From Aplysia californica (Eukaryota), in assembly GCF_000002075.1 (NCBI RefSeq), contig NW_004797490.1, forward strand, positions 1,025,013 through 1,089,012: 64,000 nt of DNA. The letters are read 5' to 3'. This document shows, one piece after another, positions 15,737 to 61,864 of this stretch (its first letter is position 1; every line of letters begins with the position of its first letter). The notes beneath the pieces were generated by a model that saw only the letters and a list, made by a program, of their open reading frames with translations, did no database searches and was not told the DNA's origin. Position numbers and translations under genes: made by a program.

Positions 15737-16259
15737 GGGGGGGGCTCTCGTGGCCTAGAGGTTAAGGTGTTGGCCTCTCATTCAAAGGTCCCGGGTTCGA
15801 ATCCGGGTAGCGACCGAAAAATTTTCTTCTCTAAAATTGTCTCCTTTCACCTCCTTTCCTGCTCTCTAGCAATGTTCTGTTGTCTGCTTTCAATTCCACT
15901 TTCTGCCCCCACCCCCTCACCTCCTTTGCCCCCCTCCTCTGGGCTCCTGACTCTTTCTGCAGCCTTTATACTGCTACTCCTTGGCTCCTCCTTACTGCTG
16001 TCTTTCTGCCACACCCCTGACCTTCTGGTAGGAAAGGTCTACACCTAGCCTTCTCGGACAAGGGCGAAAAATCTTTGAGGGGCCGTTTGCAAGTTACGCA
16101 CGTTAAAGATCCCTTGGTGGTCTAAAATCGATAAGAGTAGGCTTCGGCCGCCACCCGGGCAAAATTCAAAATTTCCTACCAACTGAAAATATTAGGTGTG
16201 TCCCGCGCGCTCATATGACCTATGCAGTTGCGAGCGCCGTAAAACACTTTACAAAAACA
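15737..16259 (+). mobile_element. tRNA-derived SINE family A (Deu/Nin-like core, shared 3' tail), full length
   Basis: A box TGGCCTAGAGG, B box GGTTCGAATCC, core GCACGTTAAAGATCCC...GATAAGAGTAGG, tail GCGCTCATATGACCTATGCAGTTGCGAGCGCCGTAAAAC; 13-bp TSD AAGATTACAATGG. Confidence 0.92.
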
Positions 16260-16968
16260 AAGATTACAATGGTTCTGTATGGCGGTGTTTATCTAGCAGT
16301 GGTTGAGTATGAGCTCAGGTGCACAAATCCAGGAGAGGCAGTGCTCAAAAGGTTACATCCATTAATACCCCCACACACCTGAAATATCACTACAGCGCTG
16401 CCCAGTGCGACTTAGTTGACCTTGTATTGGTTCACATGTGTATATTCTGTTGTTGCAATTGATCCAATAACGGCTTGGCTTACCTTTGCCCTTCTTCAAC
16501 TTCAACACAACTTCTGAATAGTAAATGGCTTTTGGTCATAGTGGACTAGATAAGAAGTTCAGGAATGATATATTGTTAGGTCTGTTGGTGAGACTCTGGA
16601 GTATGATGTGGATGAGCTAGTTTAGTGTCTATTATGAAACAGCATTGTCTCTTGAACTGCTCAGGCGGACTGTCCGGTAGCAATTGCAGGTGAAGATTAA
16701 TTCAAATAACATGTCTCATGAATAACCTAATGTGTCTAAAAAGAGATATATATGAATAAAAATTAAACAAGTGGGTAAAGAAAACACTTATTGGCCTTTC
16801 GGTAAATGCAATTAACCATTTAATCATTCCTGCCTCTGTCCCACCTCTCTTTTCTTTTATTCCTGTTTCTTTTATCCATATTTTTTACATGGTGTTGTGC
16901 GTTTCTGTATGTTAATTTGCAATTTATCATGTTCTTTTATTTGATGTTCACTCCTGTATTCTTCCCAG

Positions 16969-18429
16969 TTACTGATGACAATGGCCTACAGTGATGAGTA
17001 TCGCTCAAAGCTGCGGACACCGAAAAAGGAACTGAAGCAGGAACAGATGCCTTGGGAGACAAATAACATGAGCTTCGATCAGCTAGGCTTTGCCAATTTC
17101 CCTCACTTAATGTCCACTCCAAGCCCTCTCAAACGTGAGGCAGGGACTTCGGATGACTTATCGAGGTTCGAAAGTCCACACAAATCTGGTTATTTCCTCC
17201 GAACACCCAGTCCTCCCCATAAAGTTTCTTCAAACTTTTTGGGTTCTCCAAAGATGTGTAAGCCGGAGCTGCCGGGAACGCCAAGCCCTCACAGAGCAGG
17301 CTCGGCAACAGATTTATTTGGCAACCGCTCTCTCCTAGATAACTTGCCTGTCCCAGACTGGGATGAGAATTTCTTGGATAACTTTCAAGAAGACCTCCTT
17401 TTTGGATTAGGTAATGAGGATATCGAAGTCTTAATGAAAAGCCCAGCCAAGAGCCCTGGTCGGGCCCAGAGGTTCCTTAGTCCCCTTAAAGGCTCTGCAG
17501 GGCTTAGCCCTCTGAAAGGTCCTCTTCTCACATCAAGTCCTAAAGGTATGATGGAGAGTAGCCCAGGCGGTTTGAACAAAACGCCAGCAGTGTGTGGACG
17601 CCCTCTTACACGTCAGCGCAGATTGTTCTTGCAGAGTCCTGAAAGGCAAGGTCCACCACAACATTACCAGCCTTCCAATGCCTCAGCCAGTGGCTGGTCT
17701 TCTACTGCTACTACATCGTCTTTCTCACCAGTCGACACCTCCACATCTTCCTTATTCAGTAATGAGAGTCAGGAGACAAGTGTGTCCATACAAAACATTT
17801 CCACTTATCTCAAACGATTTGATGAGGAAGACCACGAGGAAGAGCTGCCAGTCATGCCCCCAGCAGGCTGGGTGAACAAAGGAGCCCCTACTTTAAAGCC
17901 ATCCTCTCATAGCAAGGGGAAGCATTTAGCTAAGCACAAGTCGCATTCTGCACACCCTCTGAAAGGAGGACATAGGACTTCAGCTTCTCTGTTCCCAGCT
18001 TCAGCCTCTTCTATTGGTTCTAAGAAAGCTCGTGTAGAGCCACAATTCACCCTTCTGAAGCCACAAACAGAAATTCTCAATAATCAGATCTGTCTGCGCA
18101 TGACCCCCCGCACCCCACCGAATAAGATTAAAATCTCCAGAGATTTTTCGCAGATTCAAACGTTACCTTCTAAAGAACAATTGCGGATAGTGCGTAACCG
18201 CTTTAGGGAAACCCTGAACAAAGCAGTGGAACAAGTCATAGAAAAGGAGAAGGAGACACGCAAGGTTAAAGGTCAAAACATGAATGACCCTGAACTAAGA
18301 AATGCTCTACAGAGAGTTCCCATAGAACCACAGGTCCTTGTTCAAGCTACCACAATTGCTGCTCCTATCCAGGTGTATGGGGCAGCAGATGTGCCCAGAA
18401 AACAGCAAGGGAAAAAGAGAAAGCGTTAA
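16969..18429 (+). CDS. Main coding exon of an uncharacterised S/T-P-rich, probably nuclear protein (484 aa from ATG 16975; 490 aa if spliced to 15557)
   Basis: 1455-nt uninterrupted ORF, more GC-rich than its flanks; acceptor ttcttcccAG at 16968; no transposon motifs; C-terminal KKRKR. Confidence 0.88.
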   Translation, partial: LLMTMAYSDEYRSKLRTPKKELKQEQMPWETNNMSFDQLGFANFPHLMSTPSPLKREAGTSDDLSRFESPHKSGYFLRTPSPPHKVSSNFLGSPKMCKPELPGTPSPHRAGSATDLFGNRSLLDNLPVPDWDENFLDNFQEDLLFGLGNEDIEVLMKSPAKSPGRAQRFLSPLKGSAGLSPLKGPLLTSSPKGMMESSPGGLNKTPAVCGRPLTRQRRLFLQSPERQGPPQHYQPSNASASGWSSTATTSSFSPVDTSTSSLFSNESQETSVSIQNISTYLKRFDEEDHEEELPVMPPAGWVNKGAPTLKPSSHSKGKHLAKHKSHSAHPLKGGHRTSASLFPASASSIGSKKARVEPQFTLLKPQTEILNNQICLRMTPRTPPNKIKISRDFSQIQTLPSKEQLRIVRNRFRETLNKAVEQVIEKEKETRKVKGQNMNDPELRNALQRVPIEPQVLVQATTIAAPIQVYGAADVPRKQQGKKRKR

Positions 18430-19352
18430 GCTGTTTGTAGTAATTTCACCTGCATATGACATTGGTAAATGTGGGATGGCTCTCATGTATGTCATACCTG
18501 AATTTTTATCCTCTTTCATTTTCATTTTAAGAAAATGAACAAAACGTGACTTAAAATTAACGCAAGACCTGACTGTTGTGATGATATGGGTTCACAAATG
18601 TTTACTGAATGTCTTTTGAATTCTGAGAATAAGACATGTCATGTTTGTGAAGACTGTAGTTGTGGTTTGTTGTCTTTTTAAAATTTGTTTCCCTCGTAAC
18701 ATGACTATCAGTTTTTGTAAGCTTTAAAGATGTAACATTTCTGAATGCAGTATAAAAAAGACCTTGCATTGCCTGTGTAATGTATCTGTCCTGTATATGT
18801 GAGGTCAGTCATGAATTGTGTTGCCTCAACTTTTTTTATTTCAATTACTGGCCACATGCTATCTCTACCTAGTTTGTATAGGCAGTGTGGTCAGAGTCCT
18901 GAGTGACCGTTGAGCTAGATTGATGGATAGGACAAACTGGGCAGTCAGGTTGACACTGTTCCTCTACTCATTTCCGTATGTGTAACTGTTCATTGGCTCT
19001 TCTCCTCTTTCAGACTTAAGTAAATTAACAGATGCTGAGTTACATGACTTATAAAGATGTGTCTGCCTCTTCAGATGGTACTACTGACAGTGAAGCTTCC
19101 TCATTGTTTTGAAAATGCAGCCTCTCTTTTCAATCAGTATGGTGTTAGCCGATGTTAGACTTTTAGGTTTTGAATAGTTTTTCACACTTGAGGTCAAGGT
19201 TTCAGAAATCTGACTCCTCTTTTGCTCAAGGATCAACCCCTCCTGACATTTGACATGTCTCTCTCTTTTCTTTCTTCTTTATTAAAAAAATATATTTTTG
19301 GTGTAACTCCGGAGTTCACAACTTAAGAAGTACGTGTGTAAGAGTCTGGTCT

Positions 19353-19415
19353 TTTAGTTAGTTTAGTATGGGGTTTTACGGCGCTCGCAACTGTATAAGG
19401 TCATATGAGCGTGCG
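19353..19415 (-). mobile_element. Tail-only retroposon insertion (~63 bp)
   Basis: Only the shared 3' stem-loop plus an (ACTAA)-type tail; 11-bp TSD GAGTCTGGTCT at 19342 and 19416. Confidence 0.85.
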
Positions 19416-60616: not shown

Positions 60617-60620
60617 TACG

Positions 60621-61450
60621 TTTTTTATGACGCTCGCAACTGCATATTAGGTCATATGAGCGTGCGGGGCACATTCAACATCTTTTCAATTGGTAGGAAA
60701 TTTTGAATTTTGCCCGGGTGGCATTAACGGGGCAACTTGCATACAGGACCTCAAAGATTTTTCGCCTTTGTCCGAGAAGGCTAGGTGTAGATCTTTCCTA
60801 CCAGAAGATCAAGGGTGTGGCTGAAAGACAGCATTAAGAAAGAGCCAAGGAGTAGCACTAGAAAGGCTGCAGAAAGAGTCAGGAGCCCAGAGGAGGGAGC
60901 AAAGGGGGTGAGGGGGTGGGAGGCAGAAAGTGGAAACGAAAGCAGACGACAGAACCTTGCAAGAGAGCACGAAAGGAGGTGATTTTAGAGAAGAAAATTT
61001 GGTACTACTTTTTATGAATGTGGGTCCCGTTTGGGAATACTAGTTTTGACCCCACCGACGATTACATCTGGTTCTAAATTATTACTTTTTGATTCGCATG
61101 CAGATATGGGGAGATGGCCTATATCAAACCTAATTGCAAAACATTAAATTGTGTCAAATTCAGGGGGGGGCATGCCCCCCCCCCCCCTGAAGCCCCCGCA
61201 GGTTTATATGCTAAGTCAGGGGGGCAAATTAAAACCCCCCTTGCCTTGTTTCAAAACAAGTGAAATTTTACTGCTCATTTTGTAGTCTAGATCTACTGAT
61301 GTAACATCACGAATATTGAAATCAGTACCGATATCCAGTACTATGTGTGGACGGAACCCACATTCTTAAGTTGTACAGAAAATTTTCGGATGCTACCCGG
61401 ATTCGAACCCGGGACCTTTGAATGAGAAGGGAACCCCTTAACATGCCGTA
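60621..61450 (-). mobile_element. SINE family A copy split by a MITE (60621-61000 and 61377-61450)
   Basis: Tail and body at 60621-61000; tRNA head (GGATTCGAACCCGGGACC) at 61385-61450. Confidence 0.88.
61001..61376 (+). mobile_element. MITE with GGTAC ends (Merlin- or MULE-like), copy 2
   Basis: 9-bp TSD AGAAAATTT; TIR GTAC.ACTT..GAATGTGGGT.CCGT. Confidence 0.82.
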
Positions 61451-61824
61451 CGCATAGCCACTTTGTTGGTGATCTTGTAGTTCCGTTCGTAAAAGTCCAT
61501 GATCCATTTGTTTACATCCAGAGAAGAAATTCAGAAGTCTTGATGACCAAATAAATATAGGCAACACAAAGAACAGGGATGCAACTAACTGCAAAACATC
61601 AAATTGTCGTAAAATTCCCCCTGAACCCCCCCTCCCCCACTTCCATATATTTTTATTTTAGGTCAGGGGGGCAAACCCTGAAACCCCCTTACTACTCTTA
61701 CTTAACGAACCAAACTACAAAATCGCCACTTCGTTTTTTTCTTTGTTTTTGTCTATCTGATCATCCAGACCGAAAGACAGTATTCCGTAATTAGGAAAAA
61801 CAGGTCTTGTTTCACTCCGGGTGA

Positions 61825-61864
61825 ATGCAGTTGCGAGCGCCGTAAAACTCTTACAAAAGAAAAA
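61825..61864 (+). mobile_element. Tail-only retroposon insertion (40 bp)
   Basis: ATGCAGTTGCGAGCGCCGTAAAAC plus A-rich tail; 8-bp TSD CCGGGTGA, inside the GAGAATAG repeat at 61805-61962. Confidence 0.8.

Follow-up and report, generated by a model that had tools for sequence, protein, structure and literature searches.

Three families of non-coding retroposons share a 3′ tail with a two-ORF LINE, LINE-X

The 64,000-nucleotide window analyzed here (G000:C220:1025013–1089012; animal DNA, 39% GC) contains a set of short insertions that end in one 3′ tail, and we identify elsewhere in the same genome a long interspersed element (LINE), LINE-X, that carries this tail. A profile built from seven window tails matches the window 13 times, with E values of 1.8e-17 to 0.004, and the five shuffled windows used as control not once: three copies of family A, three of family B, four of family C, and three inserts composed of tail only. 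All 12 insertions that the original prediction had described as sharing the tail are recovered, together with one more at position 25562, and both the coordinates and the grouping into families A, B, and C are upheld on re-examination. Candidate target-site duplications (TSDs) are found at 10 of the 13 copies. Eight are clean (those of the copies at 15737, 40464, 25033, 32940, 47581, 56042, 19353, and 61825), as many as had been predicted, with a size range of 8–16 bp instead of 8–14 bp; the candidate at 60222 is a low-complexity C-run, and the one at 25562, which lies apart from the 5′ end, is open to doubt for that reason.

Family A is, judged by its sequence, a short interspersed element (SINE) of the known Nin-domain superfamily. 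The full-length copy at 15737–16261 (plus strand; young subfamily, 7-nt loop, 13-bp TSD) is composed of a tRNA-like head, a CT-rich body, a Nin domain, and a LINE-X-type tail. The predicted tRNA head is borne out by both RNA polymerase III (Pol III) promoter boxes, which match the consensus without mismatch (15751–15803, plus strand; A box 15751–15761, B box 15795–15803) and are 44 nt apart; the head of a sister copy (40469) gives an Rfam tRNA match of 26.5 bits, under the 29-bit cut-off, and ARAGORN finds no intact tRNA. The region at 16050–16166 (plus strand), compared by eye with the Nin domain of Lottia printed in the supplement of PMC4758252, parallels it end to end and shares with it an exact 16-mer at 16098–16113 (chance expectation 0.03). 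The tail (16206–16246, plus strand) consists of an outer 6–7-bp stem, an inner 4-bp stem, a loop, and a conserved TAAAAC. The second copy (40465–40980, plus strand; TSD 9–11 bp) belongs to an older subfamily with an 8-nt loop. The third, listed at 60621, does belong to family A, but it is full length, extending over 60617–61442 (minus strand), and its head (61377–61442) is separated from the remainder by an inverted-repeat element of ~370 bp. This element (about 61003–61376) has terminal inverted repeats of ~27 bp and a related piece at 8252–8553.

Families B and C, neither of which has a tRNA head, are relatives of one another. Family B is represented by a young, full-length copy at 25033–25412 (plus strand, 12-bp TSD), a second full-length copy at 60222–60609 (minus strand), and a decayed copy at 24070–24433 (minus strand; 76% to the consensus, first ~10 nt gone, no TSD found). 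The copy at 25033 is built of a C-run head, a module in common with family C, a B-specific part, and an X-type tail; the module (25175–25246, plus strand, limits approximate) comprises a CT-rich stretch and a small 5-bp hairpin whose two sides change together between B and C. The family C copies lie at 32940–33100 (plus strand, 14-bp TSD) and 47578–47755 (minus strand, 12-bp TSD), both of the old tail type, at 56042–56219 (minus strand, 11-bp TSD; young, with an X-type tail), and at 57492–57590 (minus strand; 5′-truncated, old tail type, no TSD found). The three heads had been thought unrelated, which does not hold for B and C: their common body of ~75 nt has an alignment score of 65 versus 33 for the best of 300 shuffles, whereas A–B and A–C similarity beyond the tail is no better than shuffles.

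The tail-only inserts, predicted as a category of their own, are most simply 5′-truncated copies. The one listed at 19353 (19364–19415, minus strand, 11-bp TSD) is likely a severely truncated LINE-X copy because its last bases are most like the LINE-X end; the half-tail at 61825–61864 (plus strand, 8-bp TSD) begins within the loop and is a 5′-truncated copy of no assignable family; and the further half-tail at 25562–25604 (plus strand), absent from the original prediction, is a decayed match to the tail profile. The stem given for all tails, GGCGCTC/GAGCGCC, is that of B and young C. Family A and LINE-X have C as its first base, and three of the four window C copies (32940, 47581, and 57497) have another tail type, with a different loop and the stem GGCACTT/AAGTGCC.

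That no autonomous LINE carries the tail, an outcome for which the original prediction had allowed, is not the case: the RT-encoding partner it called for, RT being reverse transcriptase, is LINE-X, and, as expected, neither LINE-X nor the related LINE-Y has an ORF2 (open reading frame 2) in the window. Both LINEs were found in 20 loci from an endonuclease search. LINE-X (L121:735–6685, in G000:C6; ~5.95 kb) has two ORFs. ORF1 (501 residues) has two pattern-matched CCHC knuckles, a third recognized by eye, and no Pfam match; ORF2 (1223 residues) contains an apurinic/apyrimidinic (AP) endonuclease, an RT, an RNase H, a C-terminal CCHC, and a YVDD motif, and PF14529/PF03372, PF00078, and PF00075 score above cut-off in both LINE-X and LINE-Y. 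LINE-X terminates in the tail followed by TAC-type repeats. Its tail is 90–92% identical to the A, B, and C tails across 47–49 nt (92% across 49 nt for the family A tail at 16206–16246), and the similarity ends there; the bodies of A, B, and C are not present in LINE-X or LINE-Y. Genome searches scored 137–150 of thousands of candidates; all 137 scored matches to the C-terminal part of LINE-X are 85–100% identical, several of them in 1226-residue frames, and the tail is located ~150–180 nt past the ORF2 stop in 19 of 20 LINE-X 3′ ends sampled over this range (one breaks off earlier). The L121 copy has a TSD of 13 bp, a size like that of the short elements.

LINE-Y (L116:560–6730) has an ORF2 58% identical to that of LINE-X. 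Its tail, more distant in sequence, is likewise laid out in two stems and is present in 27 of 29 copies by pattern and in two as variants. A decayed LINE-Y 5′ untranslated region (UTR) with the start of ORF1 is in the window at 600–1313 (minus strand, lower limit approximate; 71% over ~680 nt). By their ORF2 domains, LINE-X and LINE-Y are members of the I superfamily, and their architecture makes it likely that they belong to the Nimb clade, in agreement with the predicted I/Nimb-like character of the tail: like the Nimb LINEs Nimbus/BgI of Biomphalaria, to which the comparison is one of architecture, they have two ORFs, CCHC knuckles, the order AP endonuclease–RT–RNase H, and a short tandem-repeat end. 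Ingi elements have one ORF, and a separate ORF1 with CCHC knuckles sets Nimb apart from them; Nimb is likely because, bar one unclassified clade, these two are the only I-superfamily clades in molluscs. This clade census, in which the unclassified clade is from octopus, is that of PMC10294476. The 50 loci examined from a search for the RNase H family are Ingi-like or other LINE families, whose own ends bear no such tail. The genome also has a young Ingi-like single-ORF LINE (L087–L113) with ORFs of up to 1433 residues, whose 3′ UTR is very short and terminates in GA repeats.

The LINEs themselves appear to have exchanged parts. In L121:346–735 and L227:848–1238 (and probably in L126:4101–7107) the first 387 nt of LINE-Y stand ahead of the LINE-X 5′ UTR; the junction is the same in L121 and L227 and, in L121, lies inside one 13-bp TSD. 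It is likely that one LINE-X subfamily captured 387 nt of the LINE-Y 5′ end. L119 and L210 have a doubled LINE-Y head ahead of LINE-Y. The prediction that one LINE drives several parasites is supported in that a partner with the tail exists, but the system comprises a pair of related LINEs and no fewer than three types of tail.

Copies of B and C throughout the genome have sharply defined 5′ ends. The 5′ end is fixed in 29/29 other B and 29/29 other C copies, and the flanks of fetched copies are unshared except where these are nested within other copies. TSDs are found at 28/29 C, 20/29 B, and 20/24 A copies (control 3 in each family), for a combined 68/82 versus 9/82 in the control, and are mostly 11–14 bp. 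A genome search with the heads alone reached the tail in 28/29 B and 29/29 C loci (23 B and 21 C by a regular-expression pattern, the remainder by eye); one of the 29 B loci is interrupted by another SINE, and none of the 29 B and 29 C loci continues into a LINE. Insertions inside a C copy account for 7/29 C, 4/29 B, and 0/24 A copies, with C covering 7%, 6%, and 2% of the flanks, respectively; we do not claim an insertion preference because the search favors places with more matching words. C copies often lie within or beside other C copies in small clusters (L003, L005, L009, L021, L023, L025, L026, L029, and L125), which may be search bias. Other nested arrangements are a 5′-truncated LINE-Y within a family B copy (L118, 11-bp TSD) and another tRNA SINE inserted into a nearby B (L249). 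First-look candidates number 4680 (A), 2104 (B), and 4671 (C), which are not copy numbers; 33 A, B, or C tails are found within 297 kb of loci chosen for LINE domains, and the genome may therefore hold, as a rough estimate, ~1e5 tail-bearing insertions.

Neither B nor C has the small-RNA head with internal promoter boxes that characterizes classical Pol III SINEs. We find no credible Rfam match to either head and no Pol III box pair in either family; in B, a B box with one mismatch is preceded by no A box, and C has no box at all. Genome searches with the heads alone did not reveal a source for them either. We also considered whether the B head might contain an HDV-type (hepatitis delta virus) ribozyme and dismissed this on inspection by eye, without a search by descriptor, there being no P4, no room for J4/2, and no L3 motif.

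The family-majority tails combine an outer 6–7-bp stem with an inner TGAC/GTTG stem, and this two-tier fold accommodates all four of the LINE-X, LINE-Y, old C, and young C tails, with changes on both sides of a stem. Two outer pairs of old C differ from the others on both sides (G–C to A–U and C–G to U–A), and an inner G–U pair becomes G–C in LINE-Y; by eye, the scallop SINE tail printed in PMC4758252 fits as well. Over 11 rows, 89% of cells are paired compared with 24–54% when the sequences are slid, and we consider it plausible, as a model, that the fold is conserved. The LINE-X loop is 7 nt in 14 copies, and the five most basal LINE-X copies, in a tree rooted with LINE-Y and with low support among them, have the 8-nt SINE loop, unaltered in three of them and as a variant in the others. 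The young A subfamily (24 copies, median divergence 1.6%) has also lost one loop base, by a deletion that differs from that of LINE-X. However, 23 of these 24 copies were selected with a query of the young type, which occurs in 1 of 15 incidental copies. The shortening is one event and may be due to chance.

In family C the tail itself appears to have been replaced. In loci that a C query had no part in selecting, there are 59 near-full C copies: the old tail is seen in 38 and the X-type tail in 18, and 3 are unclassed. The two types differ at 10/49 tail sites but at only 4/121 body sites (p=7e-4), and seven of the ten tail differences lie outside CpG sites. Body divergence is 9.1% with the old tail versus 4.3% with the X-type tail (p=6e-6), and this greater decay of old-tail bodies points to a swap. 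As a series of separate mutations is unlikely to have produced the X form, we consider it likely from these comparisons that family C replaced an older tail with an X-type tail, the last bases of which are closer to those of B than to those of LINE-X. The 3′ UTR of LINE-Y (L116:6589–6624 and other Y copies) contains, ~70 nt upstream of the terminal tail, a decayed second tail that ends like old C. The swap would clearly document, inside one family, a kind of exchange that between families usually has to be deduced.

The terminus is shared, TSD sizes match, the families are discrete, and the partner is intact. We posit, with a probability of roughly 0.85, that A, B, and C are non-coding retroposons with the LINE-X tail that are likely copied by the LINE-X RT, and that their modules likely came together by template switching. 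For comparison there are the LINE/SINE pairs of the stringent L2 type, such as UnaL2 and ZfL2 (the latter in PMC4176376). As in the system described here, LINE and SINE have a 3′ stem-loop plus a terminal repeat in common, the shape of the stem is conserved, and the loop is particular to each family; for L2, recognition has been shown by experiment, whereas LINE-X is known here from sequence. By analogy with this L2-clade work (PMC4176376 and PMC3747384), the RT is predicted to recognize the tail stem-loop. The ORF2 protein would bind the stem generally and the loop specifically, nick the target, and prime reverse transcription at the simple repeat directly behind the tail; early stops would yield tail-only inserts, and template switching would swap heads and tails between modules. 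Family A would be transcribed as a Pol III Nin-domain SINE.

Several observations weigh against this proposal. Covariation on the 11 rows is weak: shuffles matched the score in 20/500 trials and the double-change pairs in 106/500, and across pairing and covariation measures the shuffle control reached the observed value in 17–252 of 500 trials. The tail hairpin shows no excess stability, the folding energies of three tails being no better than those of shuffled sequence (z −0.4 to −1.1). Young B and C have 8-nt loops versus 7 nt in young LINE-X; therefore, unless both loop lengths are tolerated in recognition, B and C would be driven by an unsampled LINE. Searches with RNase H, endonuclease, and foreign Nimb-like queries turned up no LINE that carries the old C tail, and the three of ten C tail differences that fall at CpG sites could be decay. 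RNA reads on LINE-X differ from the L121 copy, are mostly one-stranded over ORF2, and thus do not show a full-length sense transcript. These poly(A) RNA reads (L121:3322–3960 and 5239–6303; strand uncalibrated, with a low-complexity pile-up at 2446–2479) are almost all on one strand, opposite to the 5′ UTR reads, and are possibly antisense read-through from host genes.

The weak folding energy and covariation statistics are what would be expected if recognition were relaxed, the RT needing the terminal simple repeat alone and the tail being a passenger from founding template switches; the insert at 61825, which begins inside the loop, fits as well, although truncation follows priming. We nevertheless consider relaxed recognition improbable: the shared stretch is confined to the ~45–50 nt that fold, the terminal repeats differ between families, and the inner stem and flanking motifs are kept in LINE-Y, at 58% ORF2 identity, and in a bivalve SINE. 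It is scarcely credible that all three families are parts or 5′-truncated forms of a single element, as their distinct fixed 5′ ends with TSDs, the lack of A–B or A–C similarity, and the absence of their bodies from LINE-X and LINE-Y argue for separate units; the 75 nt that B and C share besides the tail are the one point in its favor. The nested, 3′-anchored identity with ragged 5′ ends that truncation leaves is not seen, and the families are truncations neither of LINE-X nor of each other. A separate partner for each family among related Nimb-like LINEs (LINE-X, LINE-Y, and an unsampled Z), with tails alike by descent and B and C dependent on a LINE other than LINE-X, would account for the bases after TAAAAC and the terminal repeat being particular to each family, for the presence of the old C tail in neither LINE-X nor LINE-Y, and for the relic tail of the LINE-Y 3′ UTR, and the candidates scored are a small part of thousands. 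On the other hand, 30/30 fetched loci (of 150 matches) from a foreign Nimb-like query are LINE-X or LINE-Y, the 41 unassigned among 328 tail matches include no new family, and old LINE-X copies have the SINE loop. Separate partners are doubtful as an account of the whole system; for old C a separate partner is probably correct, less so for the young families.

The origin of the B and C heads is a further matter on which explanations diverge. The two families may descend from an extinct Nimb-like LINE, either by internal deletion (as bipartite elements) or as LINE-promoter (LP) derivatives; the head would then be the 5′ UTR of that LINE, and transcription would be by Pol II. The LP SINEs of PMC4758252 are similar to B and C in being short and TSD-flanked, with no small-RNA head, a C-run start, a CT-rich stretch, and a Nimb-type tail. 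B begins with a C-run and hairpin like LINE-X, LINE-Y, and the published LP head, both families have a CT-rich stretch like the LINE-X and LINE-Y 5′ UTRs, and single internally deleted copies of LINE-X and LINE-Y exist (L227, L228, and L231). Yet the B and C heads are unlike the printed LP head by eye and have no significant match to the 5′ UTRs of LINE-X or LINE-Y (for C, a low-complexity CT match only, equaled by 3–7 of 200 shuffles) and no match to five other LINE loci; no head-selected locus runs into a LINE; and the accessible part of PMC5786205 gives RTE, Ingi, Vingi, and R2 as the only bipartite sources. A lost Nimb-like 5′ UTR, which is compatible with copying by LINE-X, is our preferred guess for these heads, a tentative one held at somewhat under even odds. 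We consider it unlikely that B and C are LINE parasites with neither a small-RNA nor a LINE-derived head, and therefore with a promoter of an undescribed kind, which moreover take part in a stepwise race over one RNA signal. In such a race the C tail swap would follow LINE-X, and the youngest A subfamily would have shortened its loop, by a different deletion, once that of LINE-X had been reduced from 8 nt to 7 nt.

The sharing of a tail by A, B, and C with LINE-X is well supported and of a known kind, with the partner identified, and its general outline has been published: in molluscs, a Nimb tail is common to several families of SINEs (PMC4824008, PMC4758252, and PMC11481361). The first describes bivalve and gastropod SINEs with one common tail and an unknown partner, and the last attributes such tails, in bivalves, to LINEs of the Nimb clade and finds tails common across superfamilies. 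The mollusc MESC/Meta, V, and MD SINEs resemble A, B, and C in having different heads and bodies with a common 35–61-nt LINE tail, and the scallop MESC tail (PMC4758252, suppl. S2) has, by eye, the inner motif and end seen here and a different outer stem; these SINEs are tRNA- or LP-headed with Meta or V domains, whereas B and C have no tRNA head or recognized domain. Family A is similar to the gastropod Aca-Nin-DC and Lgi-Nin-DC in that its tRNA-like head contains both promoter boxes, its Nin domain is complete, and it has a LINE tail and TSDs. Its head resembles by eye that of Lsa_3, which Aca-Nin-DC shares according to PMC4758252, and family A is probably Aca-Nin-DC itself if the host is the sea hare in which that SINE was described. 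The Nin domain, the tail, and the nearest published elements suggest that the host is a mollusc and probably a gastropod. The accessible part of PMC3747384 gives as partners of Nin SINEs only Nematostella pairs, with L2/CR1, and in the accessible literature searched we found no partner LINE for a gastropod Nin SINE. B, C, and the partner LINE are not named in the literature searched; Repbase-type catalogues, most subscription papers, and other supplements may have them.

The window contains several other repeats and one long open frame. A broken P-element-like transposase is encoded at 42555–44167 (plus strand; PF21787, E 7e-32, and PF12017). A repeat of ~820 bp with terminal inverted repeats, resembling miniature inverted-repeat transposable elements (MITEs), occurs at 14614–15437, at 53974–54762, and as the pieces 33565–33902 and 37810–38282, which look like one copy split by ~3.9 kb; the splitting segment has fragmented ORFs (34942–37159) with no Pfam match. 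Unclassified two- or three-copy repeats are located at 8629–9307 and 50913–51617, at 1967–2242 and 10581–10855, and at 22625–22917 with 59257–59327 and 60081–60183. Beside the A copy at 15737, a 494-residue S/P-rich frame (16945–18429, plus strand) with no Pfam match looks like a long host exon.

The analysis connects a young LINE, copies of which have intact ORFs, with a Nin SINE of gastropod type and with two retroposon families that are not tRNA-derived, and the C tail swap and the B and C heads are the parts most worth following up. How the tail is recognized has been dissected for L2 LINEs; we found no such test for a Nimb element in the literature searched. The natural tail series of young LINE-X, old LINE-X, LINE-Y, old C, and young A offers ready variants, and if the stepwise race is real, its variants would form a natural set with which to chart tail reading by an RT of the I superfamily.

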